Below, in pieces: positions 7,499 through 19,288 of a DNA stretch of 39,466 nt. The stretch is from sequence record PZ445457.1, one strand, 5' to 3'. The notes under the pieces were generated by a model. The model saw only the letters and a program-made list of their open reading frames with translations, ran no database searches and was not told the DNA's origin. This DNA is from a phage. Each line of letters opens with the position of its first letter. Within the stretch, counting starts at the first letter, position 1. A program made the translations under genes and the position numbers.

Positions 7499-9466
7499 AT
7501 GGCTAACAAGATTCGTACTGTGATGACTTACCCGCTGAATGGTGCCGTGAACTTCACGATTACCTTTGATTATCTGGCTCGTAAGTTCATCCAAGTGACA
7601 CTTATTGGTAAAGACCGTAAAGAACTGGTTCTCAATCAGGACTACCGTTTTACCAGTAAGACTCAAATTACAACTACTCGTGCGTGGACTGCCGCTGATG
7701 GCTACCAGATGATTGAGATTCGTCGATTCACTTCGGCTACCGACCGTCTGGTTGATTTTGCTGATGGCTCAATCCTCCGTGCATATGACCTGAACATCTC
7801 GCAGATTCAAACCCTGCACGTTGCCGAAGAAGCACGAGACCTCACTGCGGATACCATTGGTGTCAACAATGATGGTCACTTAGATGCTCGTGGTCGTAAG
7901 ATTGTCAACTTGGCGTATGCCACAAATGACTATGATGCTGTTCCTTTAAAGCAGGTTAAAGAGCGTGAATCCTCTGCATGGAATGCTGTAACAAAGGCTA
8001 ACGAACATGCCGACCGTTCCAATAAGGAAGCAAACCGTTCTCGTGATGAGGCCAACCGTGCTCAACGTGAAGCTGACCGCTCAACTCAACAGGCAGGTGT
8101 CTCTACGCAACAAGCAGTTGAGTCCAAGAAGCAAGCTGACCGTTCCAACTCTGAGGCCAACCGAGCTAAAGGTTATGCTGAAAGTATGACCGCAAGTGTC
8201 GCTGAGGCTAAGAAACAGGCTGACCGTTCCAACTCTGAGGCTAATCGTGCTCGTGATGAGGCCAACCGTGCTGCTGGAGAAGTGACTAAAGCTGCCGCTG
8301 AGGTTGCCAAGGCTGCTGCACACGTTGAGACCGCTAAGGGCCATGCTGACCGAGCCAACACTGAGGCAAACCGCTCTAAGAGTGAAGCTGACCGTGCAAA
8401 GACCGAGGCTGACAAGTTGGGGAACATGAACTCACTGGCTGAGGCTATTGACAGGGTTGAGGCTCCTGATGTTTACTTCAAGAGGAATGTTATAGCCGGA
8501 CACAGATTGGAGACTTCTGGAGGCTCACATCTTCACCCTAATGAGATTAAATTGGTTAACAATAAATCTCCAGACCAGCACTTCATTGTACAAGCGTGGG
8601 GAACTGGAGATCCTAATAATAGGGCGCAGGTGTTTGAGGTGAAGGATAACTTGGGTCAATACGCATTCTATATCCAGCGCCAGAAGAAGACAGACCAAAC
8701 TTGGCAAATGAGTGTGAACGGCTCTCTATCCTGCCAAATAGTAAATTCAAACTTGGGAATAGAATCCACTAACGAGAAGGCCACTGTCAAGTTTAAGACG
8801 TGGGGTGGTGGGTGGGACCAATGGACTGGTGTTGGTGTCCCTAACGTGCAGCATGACATTGCGGGACAGGGAGATGTAGCGTATCTCCTTGAGAGGGCAA
8901 CGATATGGGGCAAGGAACATTTATATGCAAAGGCATTATATAACAACGGCAATGGGGCATCATTCTTCATTCGCCACTACCTGAGAGGGGCATACTTTGA
9001 CCTACGGTCCGATGGCACTCTTATCAGTTCGACTGGTTGGAATATCCCAGCCGATGGCAACCTGTACATCAGGAAGTATGGGCTGTACATTGACGCGTGG
9101 GTCAACAAACGCCTTGGCGAACATGCCTACAACAAGAGCGAGACAGACAACCTAGTGAATGGTCGATTGACACAAGCACAAGCTGATGGGCGATACGTCC
9201 GTAAGAATGCTGGGTGGGCTGAAGTGTGGGAAGGAAGTGCTGGAGGTGGTGTCTCGGTGGGTCTCTCTCAAGATGTCCGCTGGAGAACCATCTGGATTCA
9301 AACACAAGGTCGATGGAACCCTGTTCAAATTGGGGACAATGGGTCTTACTATATCTCATCGAACGGAGGTTGGCTACAGTTTACCATCTCGAATAACGGT
9401 AGAACATTCCGTAACGATGCGGATAGAGCCTCTGTTCCTACGAGAATCTTGGTTCAAAACCAATAA
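7499..9466 (+). CDS. gene 17: Tail fiber protein gp17 (655 aa); conserved N-terminal tail-attachment domain, expanded repetitive shaft, divergent C-terminal receptor-binding region
   Basis: N-terminal ~150 aa and C-terminal tip (WEGSAGGGVSVGLSQDVRWRTIWI...SNGGWLQFTISNNG) match recalled T7 gp17; middle contains ADRSNxEANRA repeats. Confidence 0.95.
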   Translation: MANKIRTVMTYPLNGAVNFTITFDYLARKFIQVTLIGKDRKELVLNQDYRFTSKTQITTTRAWTAADGYQMIEIRRFTSATDRLVDFADGSILRAYDLNISQIQTLHVAEEARDLTADTIGVNNDGHLDARGRKIVNLAYATNDYDAVPLKQVKERESSAWNAVTKANEHADRSNKEANRSRDEANRAQREADRSTQQAGVSTQQAVESKKQADRSNSEANRAKGYAESMTASVAEAKKQADRSNSEANRARDEANRAAGEVTKAAAEVAKAAAHVETAKGHADRANTEANRSKSEADRAKTEADKLGNMNSLAEAIDRVEAPDVYFKRNVIAGHRLETSGGSHLHPNEIKLVNNKSPDQHFIVQAWGTGDPNNRAQVFEVKDNLGQYAFYIQRQKKTDQTWQMSVNGSLSCQIVNSNLGIESTNEKATVKFKTWGGGWDQWTGVGVPNVQHDIAGQGDVAYLLERATIWGKEHLYAKALYNNGNGASFFIRHYLRGAYFDLRSDGTLISSTGWNIPADGNLYIRKYGLYIDAWVNKRLGEHAYNKSETDNLVNGRLTQAQADGRYVRKNAGWAEVWEGSAGGGVSVGLSQDVRWRTIWIQTQGRWNPVQIGDNGSYYISSNGGWLQFTISNNGRTFRNDADRASVPTRILVQNQ

Positions 9467-13276: not shown

Positions 13277-13738
13277 ACTGCTCATCGGCGCTTAGTGCGC
13301 TCTTAGTGATTATGGTCGATATATACATCTTCCCTATAATCACTGTAAGAAGTCAACTCTAAGAGTAACCCTTATGTACCACTCTCTATGGTCTACAGGG
13401 TCTCTTAGGGTCTCTCACGTAGTCTCACCGCTATGCTCCTGCGTAGCACCTTATGATAGAGCCTCTGTGGTTAACCTTATGAGCCTTGATGTACCCCCCT
13501 TTAAGAATCCTACAGAAAAATCTGAGAGGGTATCTCATAGTTCATACAAAGTGTTTCCCCCCTATGGCCTCCTTCAGTCCACTCAAAGAGTGCCACCCCT
13601 ATGGTAACTTTATGTTTACTTAATGTCAATCCTTATGTGAGACATTGGGATGACTTATGGTTCACCACTAGATGTGGTGCTTAGGGTGACTTAGTGATAC
13701 TATATGTAGTCCTCTATGTGTCCCTATCTGTAAGTGAC

Positions 13739-13868
13739 CTTTGAGTCATCACCTTATGTTTCCTCTTTGAGTCATCACCTTATGTTTCCTCTTTGAGTCA
13801 TCACCTTATGTTTCCTCTTTGAGTCATCACCTTATGTTTCCTCTTTGAGTTAACACCTTATGACCTCC
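13739..13868 (+). repeat. Tandem direct repeat, 26-bp unit ctttgagtcatcaccttatgtttcct, 4 exact copies plus 1 degenerate
   Basis: Directly visible at 13739-13842 with a diverged fifth copy to 13868; positionally analogous to the T7 left-end repeat array just inside the terminal repeat. Confidence 0.9.
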
Positions 13869-13982
13869 TTATGGCTGGCTATCCTTATGTTAACCTTCAG
13901 TCGGTGCCTTATGTTTATCAGTGACCAGTAGGCTACGTCACTAAGAGAGAATCACTATCTTACTCTGTTTAGCAGTCTCTGA

Positions 13983-14021
<39 letters not shown>

Positions 14022-14077
14022 AGTAGAATTGACTGAGTGCTTATAGTGCCTTAAAGCTGGTTTATAGTCAATAGCCT

Positions 14078-14100
14078 TTATACGACTCACTAATGGGATA
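14078..14100 (+). promoter_or_regulatory. Phage RNAP promoter (phiOL-like)
   Basis: ttatacgactcactaatgggata, first phage promoter after the genome-end region. Confidence 0.65.
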
Positions 14101-14184
14101 GGTTGATTATGGTCTAATTATAATCCCTCCTTATAGTGCTAACTTAAAGACCACTTAAAAGATAACTTAAAGTCTAACTAAGGG

Positions 14185-14213
14185 TTGACTCTAAGAAACA
14201 ACTATGTTCTAAT
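14185..14213 (+). promoter_or_regulatory. Host sigma70-type early promoter (A1-like)
   Basis: TTGACT, 17-nt spacer, TCTAAT. Confidence 0.6.
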
Positions 14214-14322
14214 GGCTACCAGTTGAGAGAGACACAACGCTACCAACTACCAGACAAGACCTAGAGTTATCTGGTAAGGCTGAAGGGTCTCAAGTAGTCA
14301 TCAACCAGACATACGAAAGTGG

Positions 14323-14351
14323 TTGACTCAACGAAAGCAATAACGTAGTAT
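14323..14351 (+). promoter_or_regulatory. Host sigma70-type early promoter (A2-like)
   Basis: TTGACT, 17-nt spacer, TAGTAT. Confidence 0.6.
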
Positions 14352-14416
14352 AGCAGTCGTCAACAACTGATCGCCCTCTGAAACAACATGAGGTGTCATG
14401 GTGAGAAACAAAGTAG

Positions 14417-14446
14417 TTGACAAGTAGTGACGATAAGATGTAAGAT
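14417..14446 (+). promoter_or_regulatory. Host sigma70-type early promoter (A3-like)
   Basis: TTGACA, 18-nt spacer, TAAGAT followed by GTACCAC as in recalled T7 A3. Confidence 0.6.
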
Positions 14447-14637
14447 GTACCACGACATAACGTTCTTGTGATGTCCCACACTGAAAGGGACTCGGTGCTA
14501 ACGAAGCCTGCACTTAAAGCTCTTTAACAATTTGGATGAATAGCACTCTTGAGATGACGACAACAGCGATTAACTCAAGGTGACTCGAAAGAGAGAAGCC
14601 TTTATGATAATCACTGCAACCACATAAGGTAATCATC

Positions 14638-15096
14638 ATGATTCACACTAAAGAGCAAGCTAACGTTTTCTATGTACTGGTAAGCGCATTCCGTTCTAAC
14701 CTCGACGATGAGGTCAACATGAGTCGCCACCGCCACATGGTTAATAATCTGCGCAACGCACCGGGTCTTTATGGTATCGTTGAGTCTACCGATTTAACTG
14801 GCTGTTACCGCGAAGCCATCTCAAGTGCACCGACTGAAGAGAAAACAATCCGTGTACGTTGTAAAGACAAGGCACAGGTTCTTAATGTCGCACGACTGGC
14901 CTGTAATGAGTGGGAACAAGATTGCGTACTGGTCTATAAGTCACAGACTCACACGGCTGGCTTAGTGTACGCTAAAGGCATTGACGGCTATAAGGCTGAA
15001 CGTCTGCAAGGTAGCTTCCAGCGCATCCCTAAAGGTGCACCAATCCAAGGCTGCTTCACGGTTGACGAGTTCGGCAAATACTGGCAGGTAGCATAA
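14638..15096 (+). CDS. gene 0.3: S-adenosyl-L-methionine hydrolase (SAMase), T3-type gene 0.3 anti-restriction protein (152 aa)
   Basis: ...VFYVLVSAFRSNL.DEVNMSRHRHMV...STDLTGCYREAISSAPTEEKT.RVRCKDKAQ.LNVARLACNEWEQDCVLVYKSQTHTAGLVYAKGIDGYKAERL matches recalled T3 SAMase, not T7 Ocr. Confidence 0.85.
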   Translation: MIHTKEQANVFYVLVSAFRSNLDDEVNMSRHRHMVNNLRNAPGLYGIVESTDLTGCYREAISSAPTEEKTIRVRCKDKAQVLNVARLACNEWEQDCVLVYKSQTHTAGLVYAKGIDGYKAERLQGSFQRIPKGAPIQGCFTVDEFGKYWQVA

Positions 15097-15097
15097 C

Positions 15098-15295
15098 ATG
15101 GTCGCACTCTTCGTAATCACGATGTACGCTCTGATTGGGGCGTACTTCCTTCGAGACTTCACAACGGGTCTCAAGGTACACAAGGCTAACTTCTCGCACC
15201 TGAAGTATGGCTTTCTACCACGATTCACAGTCCGTGAACGTAACGGGCGCTTTAAGGCTAACAAGGTTGGTATCTTCTATGTTGCAACACACTGA
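15098..15295 (+). CDS. Hypothetical small early protein with hydrophobic N-terminus (65 aa)
   Basis: ATG overlaps gene 0.3 stop (taacatg); N-terminal MVALFVITMYALIGAYFL is TM-like; in the T7 gene 0.4-0.6 region; weak RBS. Confidence 0.45.
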   Translation: MVALFVITMYALIGAYFLRDFTTGLKVHKANFSHLKYGFLPRFTVRERNGRFKANKVGIFYVATH

Positions 15296-15443
15296 TAGTT
15301 TAACTAAGAAAGTCCTGTACGCACTGGCATATGGTGCCACCAACAAGACGCTAATGAAGGTACTGAACACAGAGCGTCTACCTGCCAGAAAGGTAGCAAA
15401 GGCACGTAAAGAAGCACGTTTAATTCTTAATTCTCTCTCTTAA
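15279..15443 (+). CDS. Hypothetical small basic early protein (start uncertain; 15207 or 15356 possible)
   Basis: ORF in a different frame overlapping the previous one; basic C-terminus ARKVAKARKEARL; start codon ambiguous. Confidence 0.3.
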   Translation: MLQHTDSLTKKVLYALAYGATNKTLMKVLNTERLPARKVAKARKEARLILNSLS

Positions 15444-15463
15444 ACTCAATAGGACACAATCTA

Positions 15464-16567
15464 ATGAACTACACCGACATTCAGGCACGTCTGGCAATCA
15501 TCAAGTCACTCCCGATTAGCGAACTGGACAAGCGCCAGCCTCTTCTGGTTGCACTGGCTGCTGACATCGTGAACGGTGAGACAAGCGATGGCAACGACAC
15601 AGATGGGTCGCAGGGTCTTGAGTATCAGGACTATTGGCACACCTTGGGTGCACTGATGCGTGATGCAGGTTTCCGCATGTTAGGCAATGGTCACTTTAGC
15701 GCGGCTTACTCGCACGAAATGTTACCGGGTCGAGTCATCAAGGTTGGCTTTAAGAAAGAGGATTCAGGCGCTGCATACACTGCATTCTGTAGGATGCACC
15801 AAGGCCGAGCGGGTATCCCTAACGTCTATCACGTAGCACGTCATGCGGGTTGCTATACGGTCGTACTGGACCGCTTAAAAAGCTGTGACCGCTACGCTAA
15901 CGATGTTCACGCAAAGTATGCAAGTGCTGCGCAGGAGTTCATTGAGTGCTCTGGAGGTGATGCCGATTGGTACGCACAATATGTTAGCAAGGAGTTCATT
16001 GAGACATGCAAGATGATTCGTGAGTTCTTCCACGGTATTGCATCTTTCGACATGCACAGTGGGAACATTATGTTCGACGAGAACGATGTAGCTTACATCA
16101 CTGACCCTGTTAGTTTCTCTCATGACCGTGAACGTGAGGACGGTTTCCCTTTAGACCCTGATGCACTGATTGCCGAGGTCGAGGCGATAGCTAACGAGCG
16201 CATCATTGAACGGTGCCGGAACCGCAAGGCCAAATGTGACCCTAACGGAACCTTTCAGGTTAACCGCAAGGCCGCAATGAAACGCCGTAAGCGCAACCGC
16301 AAGTTACGTGCTAAACATGCAGCGGAAGGAATGCAACAGTTTGTCAAAGGGCGTCTTGAGCGTAGAGCTATTGACCGAAATGAACGCCGTGCTGAGATGT
16401 TCATGGGGTCTGGCTGGCATGACTTCTGGTTACGCAACGGTAACACACTGGTACGCAAGGTTGACCAAGTGAACGGCCTTAAGTGGCAACTAGGGGACCG
16501 ATTGGCAATACAGGCTGGTCGCCCTTTGAACATCGACAAGGTACTTGACGCTAAACTTATGGGCTGA
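15464..16567 (+). CDS. gene 0.7: Serine/threonine protein kinase and host transcription shutoff protein gp0.7 (367 aa)
   Basis: LGNGHFSAAYSH...RVIKVGFKKEDSGAAYTAFCRM.QGR.GIPNVY.V.RHAGCYTVVLD...IASFDMHSGNIMF...YITDPVSFS matches recalled T7 gp0.7. Confidence 0.95.
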   Translation: MNYTDIQARLAIIKSLPISELDKRQPLLVALAADIVNGETSDGNDTDGSQGLEYQDYWHTLGALMRDAGFRMLGNGHFSAAYSHEMLPGRVIKVGFKKEDSGAAYTAFCRMHQGRAGIPNVYHVARHAGCYTVVLDRLKSCDRYANDVHAKYASAAQEFIECSGGDADWYAQYVSKEFIETCKMIREFFHGIASFDMHSGNIMFDENDVAYITDPVSFSHDREREDGFPLDPDALIAEVEAIANERIIERCRNRKAKCDPNGTFQVNRKAAMKRRKRNRKLRAKHAAEGMQQFVKGRLERRAIDRNERRAEMFMGSGWHDFWLRNGNTLVRKVDQVNGLKWQLGDRLAIQAGRPLNIDKVLDAKLMG

Positions 16568-16581
16568 TAAGGTGTATCTTC

Positions 16582-16606
16582 AAGGTCGGCACTCACTGCT
16601 GGCCTT
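16582..16606 (+). promoter_or_regulatory. RNA hairpin, candidate RNase III site (R1-like), between 0.7 and gene 1
   Basis: aaggtcggc-actcact-gctggcctt; stem with G-U pairs. Confidence 0.45.
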
Positions 16607-16639
16607 CATAGATAAACTTTCTTAACAACGAGGCACACA

Positions 16640-19288
16640 ATGAACGTAATCAACGCACCAAAGAATGACTTCTCTGACATCGCTAACGCAATCCAGCCGT
16701 ACAACATTCTGGCTGACCATTACGGCGCACAGCTTGCAGCTACACAGCTTGAATTGGAACATGAAGCACACACTGAGGGCGAGAAGCGTTTTCTTAAGGC
16801 GATGGAACGTCAAATCAAAGCTGGTGAGTTCGGTGATAACGCAGTGGCTAAACCGCTCCTGTCATCCCTCGCACCGAAGTTCATCGAAGCGTGGAACACT
16901 TGGTTCACTGAGGTGGAAGCGAAGCGTGGTAAGCGTCCAGTAGCCTACAATCTGGTACAGAAGGTTGCACCCGAAGCTGCTGCTTTCATCACACTGAAGG
17001 TCACACTGGCTTGCTTGACGAAAGAAGAGTTTACCAACCTGCAATCGGTCGCAACTAAGATTGGTCGCAGTATTGAGGATGAACTGCGTTTTGGTCGCAT
17101 CCGTGACGAAGAAGCGAAGCACTTTAAGAACCACGTACAGGAGGCACTGAACAAGCGCGTTGGTATCGTTTACAAGAAAGCATTCATGCAAGCCGTAGAA
17201 GGCAAGATGTTAGACGCTGGTCAACTGCAAACCAAGTGGACTACATGGACACCTGAAGAATCAATTCACGTTGGTGTGCGCATGTTGGAACTGCTCATTG
17301 GCTCTACTGGTCTCGTTGAGTTACACCGACCGTTTGCTGGTAACGTTGAGAAGGATGGCGAGTACATCCAACTGACCGAACAATACGTTGACCTGTTATC
17401 TAAGCGTGCTGGTGCACTGGCTGCAATTGCTCCGATGTACCAACCATGTGTAGTTCCTCCGAAGCCTTGGACTTCTCCGGTCGGTGGTGGCTATTGGGCT
17501 GCTGGTCGCAAGCCTCTCTCTCTGGTTCGTACTGGTTCCAAGAAGGGACTTGAGCGTTACAACGATGTGTATATGCCTGAAGTCTACAAGGCGGTGAACA
17601 TCGCACAGAATACTCCTTGGAAGATTAACAAGAAGGTTCTGGCAGTGGTCAACGAGATTGTGAACTGGAAGCATTGCCCGGTTGAAGATGTACCTGCTCT
17701 GGAACGTGGTGAACTGCCTGTCAAACCTGATGACATCGACACCAACGAGGCATCACTCAAAGCGTGGAAGAAAGCGGCCTCCGCAATCTACCGCAAAGAG
17801 AAGGCACGAGTGTCACGCCGCATGAGCATGGAGTTCATGTTAGGTCAGGCCAATAAGTTCGCACAGTTTAAAGCTATCTGGTTCCCGATGAACATGGACT
17901 GGCGCGGTCGAGTGTATGCGGTCCCAATGTTTAACCCGCAAGGCAACGACATGACCAAAGGCTTGCTGACGCTCGCTAAAGGTAAACCAATCGGTGTCGA
18001 TGGGTACTACTGGCTGAAGATTCACGGTGCGAACACTGCTGGTGTGGACAAGGTGGACTTTGCTGAGCGCATCAAGTTCATTGATGACAACCACGAGAAC
18101 ATCATGAGCGTAGCGGCTGACCCGATTGCTAACACTTGGTGGGCTGAACAAGACTCTCCGTTCTGCTTCCTCGCGTTCTGCTTTGAGTATGCGGGAGTCC
18201 AGCACCACGGGATGAACTACAACTGCTCTCTACCTCTGGCGTTCGATGGCTCTTGCTCCGGTATTCAGCACTTCTCCGCGATGCTCCGTGATGAGGTTGG
18301 TGGTCGTGCGGTTAACCTGCTGCCGAGCAAGGAAGTACAGGACATCTACCGCATCGTTGCTGAACGTGTGAACGAGATGCTCCGCGAAGCGGTAGTCAAC
18401 GGCACTGATAACGAAGTGGAAACCGTGACAAACAAGGACACCGGAGAAATCACTGAGAAGCTCAAGCTGGGAACGAAAGAGTTAGCTGGTCAGTGGCTGG
18501 CCTACGGTGTGACTCGCAAGGTCACTAAGCGTTCGGTCATGACGTTGGCTTACGGCTCCAAAGAGTATGGCTTCCGCGACCAAGTTCTTGAGGACACCAT
18601 TCAGCCAGCTATCGACGATGGCAAGGGATTGATGTTCACTCAACCGAACCAAGCGGCTGGCTACATGGCTAAACTGATTTGGGAATCGGTAACGGTCACA
18701 GTTGTCGCAGCGGTTGAAGCGATGAACTGGTTGAAGTCTGCTGCTAAACTTCTGGCTGCTGAAGTCAAGGACAAAAAGACTAAAGAAGTCCTCCGCAAGC
18801 GTTGCGCAGTACATTGGGTTACTCCTGATGGCTTCCCGGTATGGCAGGAATACAAGAAGCCAGTACAGACCCGCTTGAATCTGATGTTCTTAGGCCAGAT
18901 TCGTCTACAGCCTACCGTGAACACCAACAAGGATAGCGGGATTGATGCTCGTAAACAGGAGTCAGGCATCGCACCTAACTTTGTCCACTCAATGGATGGA
19001 AGCCACCTGAGAATGACTGTAGTGCGCTCCAATGAGGTCTACGGTGTGGAATCCTTCGCACTGATTCATGACTCCTTTGGCACTATCCCGGCTGATGCTG
19101 GCAACCTGTTTAAAGCAGTGCGTGAAACGATGGTCAACACTTACGAAGAGAACGATGTACTTGCAGACTTCTATGAGCAATTTGCTGACCAGTTGCACGA
19201 GACACAGCTTGATAAGATGCCTGAGATGCCAGCTAAAGGCTCTCTGGACCTGCAAGAAATCCTTAAGTCAGACTTTGCGTTTGCCTAA
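16640..19288 (+). CDS. gene 1: DNA-directed RNA polymerase, single-subunit T7-type (882 aa)
   Basis: Collinear with recalled T7 RNAP: motif A PLAFDGSCSGIQHF, motif C ALIHDSFGT, specificity-loop region QPTVNTNKDSGIDARKQESGIAPNFVHS, C-terminus SDFAFA. Confidence 0.98.
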   Translation: MNVINAPKNDFSDIANAIQPYNILADHYGAQLAATQLELEHEAHTEGEKRFLKAMERQIKAGEFGDNAVAKPLLSSLAPKFIEAWNTWFTEVEAKRGKRPVAYNLVQKVAPEAAAFITLKVTLACLTKEEFTNLQSVATKIGRSIEDELRFGRIRDEEAKHFKNHVQEALNKRVGIVYKKAFMQAVEGKMLDAGQLQTKWTTWTPEESIHVGVRMLELLIGSTGLVELHRPFAGNVEKDGEYIQLTEQYVDLLSKRAGALAAIAPMYQPCVVPPKPWTSPVGGGYWAAGRKPLSLVRTGSKKGLERYNDVYMPEVYKAVNIAQNTPWKINKKVLAVVNEIVNWKHCPVEDVPALERGELPVKPDDIDTNEASLKAWKKAASAIYRKEKARVSRRMSMEFMLGQANKFAQFKAIWFPMNMDWRGRVYAVPMFNPQGNDMTKGLLTLAKGKPIGVDGYYWLKIHGANTAGVDKVDFAERIKFIDDNHENIMSVAADPIANTWWAEQDSPFCFLAFCFEYAGVQHHGMNYNCSLPLAFDGSCSGIQHFSAMLRDEVGGRAVNLLPSKEVQDIYRIVAERVNEMLREAVVNGTDNEVETVTNKDTGEITEKLKLGTKELAGQWLAYGVTRKVTKRSVMTLAYGSKEYGFRDQVLEDTIQPAIDDGKGLMFTQPNQAAGYMAKLIWESVTVTVVAAVEAMNWLKSAAKLLAAEVKDKKTKEVLRKRCAVHWVTPDGFPVWQEYKKPVQTRLNLMFLGQIRLQPTVNTNKDSGIDARKQESGIAPNFVHSMDGSHLRMTVVRSNEVYGVESFALIHDSFGTIPADAGNLFKAVRETMVNTYEENDVLADFYEQFADQLHETQLDKMPEMPAKGSLDLQEILKSDFAFA

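Follow-up and report, generated by a model that had tools for sequence, protein, structure and literature searches.

A predicted T3-type SAM lyase at the gene 0.3 locus of a Berlinvirus with T7-like promoters

What does the first early gene of this phage encode, and does its presence beside T7-like promoters make the genome a hybrid of T7 and T3? In a first-pass annotation the gene was taken for a T3-type S-adenosylmethionine (SAM) hydrolase rather than the Ocr DNA mimic of T7 and, the promoters and RNA polymerase being judged T7-like, the genome was described as mosaic between the T7 and T3 paradigms. We examined both proposals in the window, by which we mean the whole 39,466-nt stretch of record PZ445457.1; the features under discussion are collected in Table 1. 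Our reading, which we hold to be very probably correct, is that gene 0.3 of this phage, Bas68, encodes a functional T3-type SAM lyase in an ordinary Berlinvirus and not in a T7/T3 hybrid.

The locus has a published background. The BASEL study (2021) places Ocr at the gp0.3 locus in Teseptimavirus and a T3-like SAM hydrolase there in all other Studiervirinae genera, and its supplement lists Bas68 CarlSpitteler as MZ501055, a Berlinvirus of 39466 bp with PhiV-1 as nearest relative (PMC8594841); PhiV-1 was also the best match, at 93.4%, in our genome relative search. The Kvp1 paper (2008) describes T3-like gp0.3, 0.6 and 0.7 together with promoters that most resemble those of phage Berlin (PMC2579914), and a literature search on the SAMase of BA14 found nothing. 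The combination of a gene 0.3 SAM lyase with T7-like promoters is already known for Berlinvirus, and effectively for CarlSpitteler too.

Table 1. Features of the window, with coordinates and the basis of each assignment
Feature	Coordinates	Strand	Size or sequence	Basis or remarks
Gene 17, tail fibre	7499..9466		655 aa
Tandem array of a 26-bp unit	13739..13862		CTTTGAGTCATCACCTTATGTTTCCT	4.8 copies, 97% match
GA run	13988..14019		(GA)16, perfect	Non-coding left end, between terminal-repeat region and phiOL
Phage promoter phiOL	14078..14100	+	TTATACGACTCACTAATGGGATA	Pattern search; one of 17
Other phage promoters (start positions)	88, 7429, 12941, 19296, 19920, 20446, 21615, 21723, 22692, 24456, 26404, 27236, 31556, 34148, 35138, 36500	+		Pattern search
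Putative host sigma-70-type promoter, A1-like	14185..14213	+	TTGACT, 17 nt, TCTAAT	-35 aligns with T3 A1 -35; consensus match only
Host promoter-like site	14323..14351	+	TTGACT, 17 nt, TAGTAT	Consensus scan
Putative host promoter, A3-like	14417..14446	+	TTGACA, 18 nt, TAAGAT	10/12 consensus; aligns with T3 and T7 A3
Stem-loop, putative RNase III site R0.3 homologue	14563..14616	+		Aligns with annotated T3 R0.3 (T3 822-875)
Shine-Dalgarno-like site	14626..14630	+	AAGGT	7 nt before ATG; aligns with GAGGT of T3 and T7
Gene 0.3, predicted SAM lyase (SAMase)	14638..15096	+	152 aa	ORF, T3 identity, Pfam, exact QXV76803.1 sequence
Allelic cassette, gene 0.3 body	14700..15097	+	~codon 22 to stop	Kvp1/BA14-type allele between PhiV-1-type flanks
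Putative in-frame internal start Met28 (0.3B-like)	14719..15096	+	125 aa	GAGG at 14710-14713, 5 nt upstream
Gene 0.6 homologue	15098..15295	+	65 aa	63% to T3 gp0.6, 97% to Kvp1 gp0.6
Gene 1, single-subunit RNA polymerase	16640..19288	+	882 aa	76% to T7, 75% to T3, ~100% to Kvp1
RNA polymerase specificity loop	18851..18946	+	Residues 738-769 (= T7 739-770), YKKPVQTRLNLMFLGQIRLQPTVNTNKDSGID	Alignment

Identity and predicted mechanism of the gene 0.3 product

The reading frame runs on the + strand from the ATG at 14638 to the TAA at 15094-15096, exactly as first proposed. Its product aligns without gaps to the 152-residue gp0.3 of T3 (UniProt P07693; structures 7OCK and 8BB1) over residues 1-151, with 135 of the 151 positions identical (89%; E 5e-107). 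The PDB entries 7OCK_L/8BB1, described as 'SAM hydrolase | S-adenosylmethionine lyase', are matched with E 2.6e-91, and the Pfam profile S-AdoMet_lyase (PF23780) is covered over positions 1-132 of its 133 with a score of 147.9 bits, the cut-off being 28. Neither NCBIfam nor PADLOC gave a match for the protein. The sequence is exactly that of GenBank QXV76803.1 from Escherichia phage CarlSpitteler, which is labelled 'SAM hydrolase / restriction inhibitor'.

Ocr of T7 occupies the same genomic slot in the same expression context and acts against the same targets, namely type I restriction-modification and BREX, but it has no sequence similarity to the window protein (BLASTP E 39). The two also differ in charge, Ocr being acidic (pI 4.05; 34 acidic residues, 6 basic) and gp0.3 of the window basic (pI 8.27; 17 acidic residues, 19 basic), and in strategy, which is DNA mimicry for Ocr and metabolite depletion for a SAM lyase. 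The lack of similarity and the basic pI rule out Ocr as the identity of gp0.3, and the alignments to both proteins bear out the view that the gene belongs to the T3 type over nearly its full length.

The name given to the product in the first-pass annotation needs correction. The term hydrolase is outdated, the family having been shown by Guo et al. to consist of lyases with MTA and homoserine lactone as products (PMC7877911). A different label, 'SAM-dependent methyltransferase', is attached by RefSeq and PHROG 2226 to homologues that include T3 gp0.3 itself. Taken at face value, the RefSeq product names and the PHROG description would make gp0.3 a methyltransferase, a reading to which we attach practically no weight: S-AdoMet_lyase is the sole Pfam match of the protein at E <=1, with no methyltransferase domain found, the homologue of known structure is a SAM lyase, and the mechanism has been demonstrated (PMC7877911). 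The methyltransferase label is a misannotation passed along from one homologue to the next, and the proper name for the product is SAM lyase, neither hydrolase nor methyltransferase.

Mutagenesis and structural work has assigned roles to the SAM-binding residues of this family (PMC7877911; bioRxiv 10.1101/2023.02.27.530186). All five T3 residues that bind SAM or hold it in the reactive conformation (G55, Y57, E68, Q94 and D95) are identical in the window protein, as is E67. Of these, E68 is the counterpart of the key Glu69 of Svi3-3 (Guo et al., PMC7877911), and the change E68Q/Q94A abolishes catalysis by T3 SAMase (Andriianov et al., bioRxiv 10.1101/2023.02.27.530186). The same authors describe a 4:4 complex that T3 SAMase forms with MetK, in which the contacts are made by the N-terminal tail (M1, I2, F3, T4, K5, A8 and N9) and by the β4-β5 loop (Q103, T104 and T106), while H105 stabilises the tail through E6. 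Nine of the ten contact residues are identical in the window protein, the sole change being F3H; the E6/H105 pair is conserved, and the strictly conserved T4, N9, Q103, T104 and H105 are all found. MetK inhibition has been shown independently by Simon-Baram et al., and both activities contribute to the evasion of BREX by T3 SAMase (Andriianov et al., bioRxiv 10.1101/2023.02.27.530186).

As the SAM-binding residues and, save for F3H, the contact residues are identical to those of T3, we infer the same dual mechanism for the window protein. By homology to T3 gp0.3 and in keeping with its 89% identity to this characterised enzyme, it would cleave SAM to 5'-methylthioadenosine and homoserine lactone, and its N-terminal tail and β4-β5 loop would bind the host SAM synthetase MetK and thereby block SAM synthesis. 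The ensuing depletion of SAM is predicted to leave type I restriction-modification and BREX, both of them defences that depend on SAM, disabled before the remaining genome enters the cell, a defence phenotype likewise assigned by homology to T3. The one altered contact, F3H, sits in the MetK-contacting tail, and the affinity of the window protein for MetK could differ from that of its T3 counterpart. The proposed anti-restriction role, combining SAM depletion with inhibition of SAM synthesis, agrees with the published work on T3.

It is conceivable that a protein of this kind might have lost its lyase activity and serve only as a stoichiometric MetK inhibitor, or in some other non-enzymatic anti-defence role, given that the E68Q/Q94A form of T3 SAMase keeps partial anti-BREX activity via MetK binding. 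For the window protein we regard this as very improbable, as the residues implicated in SAM binding or catalysis are all preserved and the gene-wide dN/dS is very low (0.075, the lowest value among the genes where it could be estimated, pointing to the strongest purifying selection there). A catalytically dead variant was rejected on the conservation of these residues, and a functional SAM lyase is the reading that we retain.

More distant members of the family, the SAM lyases Svi3-3 and Orf1 from environmental phages, catalyse the same reaction and share a few SAM-binding residues (G, Y, E, Q-D/E) with the window protein, but their sequence similarity to it is barely detectable. Svi3-3 further differs in forming a trimer whose active sites lie at the subunit interfaces and in having no MetK-binding residues.

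Early leader and expression of gene 0.3

The + strand has no ORF of 30 aa or more between the left-end promoters and position 14638, which makes gene 0.3 the first early gene and the first such ORF after the host promoters, in agreement with the first-pass annotation. The leader is alignable with those of T3 and T7 all the way to the ATG of gene 0.3, the features in register being phiOL, the A1-like and A3-like promoters and the R0.3-like stem-loop. A sigma-70 consensus scan gave 5 sites against 4.4 expected, a number not exceeding that in shuffled sequences, and the main argument for the promoters is their positional homology to T3. The R0.3-like hairpin is seen in the minimum free energy fold of the leader, with a fold energy no better than that of shuffles (z -0.76). 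Both the sigma-70 and the RNase III assignments are putative ones drawn from homology and consensus, and an Rfam scan of 13600-16700 (E <=1) returned no family. By analogy with T3, in which gp0.3 is likewise the product of the first early gene behind A1-A3 and R0.3, host RNA polymerase would transcribe gene 0.3 first, from the A1-A3-like early promoters, and the transcript would probably be processed at the R0.3-like RNase III site.

The likeness to T3 extends into the gene, where the T3 annotation has an in-frame internal start (0.3B) at the codon corresponding to Met28. The window shares this ATG and the GAGG before it with Kvp1, T3, SH1 and Keithstache, and both are conserved in the Teetrevirus alleles; PcCB251 and K11 lack them, and residue 28 is I or L in the allele of PhiV-1 and PcCB251, and E in K11. 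The T3 annotation and this conservation make internal initiation at Met28 possible in the window phage, and the 125-aa product would be without the MetK-binding tail.

Downstream the arrangement departs from that of T3. The ATG of gene 0.6 lies 1 nt past the stop codon of gene 0.3 (TAAcATG, 15094-15100), and the RNase III site R0.5 is absent between the two genes, whereas T3 has a 70-nt spacer that holds R0.5. Genes 0.3 and 0.6 would remain together on a single processed mRNA, possibly with translational coupling.

The left end of the genome has some peculiarities of its own. The window presents the genome in circularly permuted form: the first position of Kvp1 aligns near ~13535 of the window, whose own first position is a short way upstream of the phi13 promoter (88-110). 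The sequence record probably holds a single copy of the terminal repeat. At the place of the perfect GA run of the window, Kvp1 has only (GA)4, which indicates that the tract has expanded in the window. The unit CTTTGAGTCATCACCTTATGTTTCCT is present in ~1-2 copies in Kvp1, and phage Berlin has a different array; left-end repeat arrays thus differ among relatives.

Phage promoters and the question of a T7/T3 mosaic

A search for ACGACTCACTA with at most two mismatches gave 24 matches against 12.4 expected, a count reached by none of 100 shuffles, and 17 + strand sites yield the 23-bp consensus TAATACGACTCACTATTGGGAGA. At positions -12 to -10 this consensus reads CGA as in T7, where T3 has ACC, with G at -11 in 14 of the 17 sites and A at -10 in all of them. 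Residue 748 of the RNA polymerase sets the preference for promoter bases -11 and -10 in T7 and T3. The specificity loop of the window polymerase reads QTRLNL, in which N747 (codon 18878-18880) is the equivalent of T7 N748, T3 having D at this place. The T7-like character of the promoter core and of the specificity region, noted in the first-pass annotation, is thereby upheld, and it distinguishes the setting of gene 0.3 from that in T3, whose promoters are T3-like. Membership of the polymerase in the T7 lineage was rejected: the enzyme is 76% identical to that of T7 and 75% to that of T3, T7 and T3 being 82% identical to each other, and the promoters have T at -1 in 15 of 17 sites, a position at which both T7 and T3 have A. 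Kvp1, classified as Berlinvirus Kvp1, has the same consensus in its annotated promoters. The T7-like promoters and the matching RNA polymerase determinant are an independent, genus-typical character of Berlinvirus.

Such a constellation could in principle have arisen by recombination between a T7-type and a T3-type phage, with the anti-restriction gene coming from T3 and the transcription system from T7. Several observations speak for an origin of this kind: gene 0.3 encodes the most T3-like protein of the genome (89%, the remaining proteins ranging over 36-83%), T3 but not T7 has homologues of genes 0.6 and 1.05, the promoters and N747 are T7-like, and transfer of gene 0.3 between genera occurs elsewhere (Carena versus SH2, Ebrios versus T3). 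They are outweighed by the lack of any segment close to T7 or T3, the highest protein identity to either being the 89% of gp0.3. In a set of 14 core proteins, the identities of the window to T7 or T3 span 54-83%; with genes 0.7 and 3 excepted, they are 62-83%, as against 72-97% between T3 and T7. In 11 of the 14 proteins the T3-T7 identity exceeds that of either phage to the window, by as much as ~34 points; the exceptions are genes 0.7, 3 and 10A, where it ties or is lower. On protein identities, the window phage is an outgroup to both T3 and T7, a position that agrees with the published rooting of the Studiervirinae tree (BASEL, PMC8594841).

Synonymous divergence leads to the same answer. 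Between the window and T3, pS of gene 0.3 is 0.60 overall and 0.64 from codon 22 to the end, compared with 0.66 for the RNA polymerase, 0.64 for the portal and 0.69 for the DNA polymerase, other genes ranging over 0.50-0.88. As gene 0.3 is at the level of the backbone, its high protein identity reflects constraint and not recent transfer; a recent acquisition from T3 was rejected, the synonymous divergence being no less saturated here than elsewhere in the genome. The pairing of gene 0.3 with T7-like promoters is, moreover, the usual condition across Berlinvirus, as in Kvp1, BA14 and 285P. Derivation of the phage as a T7 x T3 recombinant, which has largely been refuted already, seems to us most unlikely, and the description of the genome as mosaic between the two paradigms falls on the equidistance of the polymerase and on the ordinary synonymous divergence of gene 0.3. 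We therefore treat the phage as an ordinary Berlinvirus in what follows.

The most diverged of the structural proteins is the tail fibre encoded by gene 17 (36-37% identity to T7 and T3), which shows 57% identity to Kvp1 over only about half its length. This pattern suggests a swapped receptor-binding domain.

SAMase homologues are present in 494 phage records, a sample of which spans four promoter types. The first five relatives sampled at the DNA level all belonged to Teetrevirus; Przondovirus, Foetvirus and Teseptimavirus were reached by a protein-level search. In this sample SAMase occurs with N at residue 748 and the promoter core CGACTCACTA in Berlinvirus and in Teseptimavirus Ebrios, with D and ACCCTCACTA in Teetrevirus, with K and GGGCACACTA in Przondovirus K11, and with D and ACCCACACTA in Foetvirus SRT7. 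Yersinia phage Berlin has an N-type polymerase and no gene 0.3.

Two of these genomes deserve mention in their own right. Escherichia phage Ebrios, of the genus of T7 itself, carries in its early region (971-2194) an 'ocr-like anti-restriction' gene as well as a SAMase of T3 type (91% to T3), so that the division between Ocr in Teseptimavirus and SAMase in the other genera does not hold without exception. In Yersinia phage Berlin, the type species of its genus, the region 855-1230 holds the conserved leader, 90% identical to window 14519-14615, and after it an unrelated 77-aa ORF; homology to the window is regained in the 3' part of gene 0.6.

Allelic exchange at slot 0.3 and the restriction phenotype

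The closest relatives of the window gene are those of the Kvp1 group. Kvp1 gp0.3 differs by a single residue, I47S, at 97.6% nucleotide identity, and gene 0.3 is found at 95-98% nucleotide identity in 17 records, for example Kvp1, BA14, 285P, BP12A, FE44, JSS1 and BSP161. Kvp1 also has the promoter consensus and, at ~100% identity, the RNA polymerase of the window, but it differs in the immediate leader (14566-14636), which is 65-68% identical to that of Kvp1 and, being of PhiV-1 type, 96-100% identical to that of PhiV-1. The comparison with PhiV-1 changes abruptly within the gene: nucleotide identity is 92-100% over 14400-14699, 60-84% over 14700-15099 and again 92-98% over 15100-15349, and pS is 0.00 for codons 1-21 and 0.62 for the rest of gene 0.3, against 0.17 for the RNA polymerase gene. 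The allele of PhiV-1, ErnstBeyeler and PcCB251 thus occupies the same locus between near-identical flanks, shares the first 22 residues with the window and keeps the catalytic and MetK-contact residues, but has an overall identity of 67-68%, falling to 62% from codon 22 onwards, and is without Met28.

Among the Berlinviruses compared, whose RNA polymerases are 97-100% identical, four states of the locus were seen: the allele of the window and Kvp1; the second allele, in PhiV-1, ErnstBeyeler and PcCB251; a Teetrevirus-type allele in Carena, 100% identical in amino acid sequence to that of SH2; and absence of the gene in Yersinia phage Berlin. Berlinvirus SAMases accordingly comprise at least three alleles, with mutual identities from 62-68% to 89%, besides the null state. 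The pS between Carena and SH2 is 0.13 for gene 0.3 and 0.67 for the RNA polymerase gene, and that between Ebrios and T3 is 0.31 and 0.65, respectively. These pairs record recent transfers of gene 0.3 between genera. The real mosaicism at gene 0.3 of the window phage is among Berlinvirus SAMase alleles and not between T7 and T3.

The comparisons show that SAM-lyase alleles are exchanged, very probably by homologous recombination between the conserved flanks. T7-like phages typically display mosaicism of this kind in their early regions, and the allelic cassette is a modest addition to the known picture. One might further propose that the turnover of alleles is driven by selection and is not neutral, be it through escape from host systems that sense or neutralise SAM lyase or through tuning to variants of the host MetK, a proposal that we regard as rather doubtful.

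The published restriction data on Bas68 bear on the expected phenotype. The BASEL study found type I restriction-modification ineffective against its Studiervirinae and attributed type I resistance in the genera other than Teseptimavirus to the gene 0.3 SAM hydrolase (PMC8594841). According to its supplement, wild-type Bas68, which has 5 recognition sites for each system, plates with an efficiency of 0.85 on EcoKI and of 0.10 on EcoCFT_I (PMC8594841); the low value on EcoCFT_I indicates that type I protection is incomplete. These figures are consistent with a SAM-lyase mechanism and describe the wild-type phage as a whole, the share of gene 0.3 not being isolated in them.

The same supplement shows that, its SAM lyase notwithstanding, Bas68 is strongly restricted by the type III systems, with efficiencies of plating of ~1.5e-14 on EcoPI (142 recognition sites) and ~6e-4 on EcoCFT_II (116 recognition sites). 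SAM depletion evidently gives Bas68 no protection against these two systems.

The SAM lyase having been published for the genus and annotated for CarlSpitteler, the significance of the gene 0.3 finding is small beyond the correct annotation of the product. Slot 0.3 nevertheless emerges as a hot spot of exchange whose breakpoints are sharply defined, and Bas68, Bas67, PhiV-1 and Carena offer a natural allele series in which the effects of sequence differences between SAM lyases could be studied. Across the Studiervirinae the anti-restriction gene carried at slot 0.3 and the specificity of the promoters change independently of each other, and T7 and T3 are poor paradigms by which to classify their relatives.
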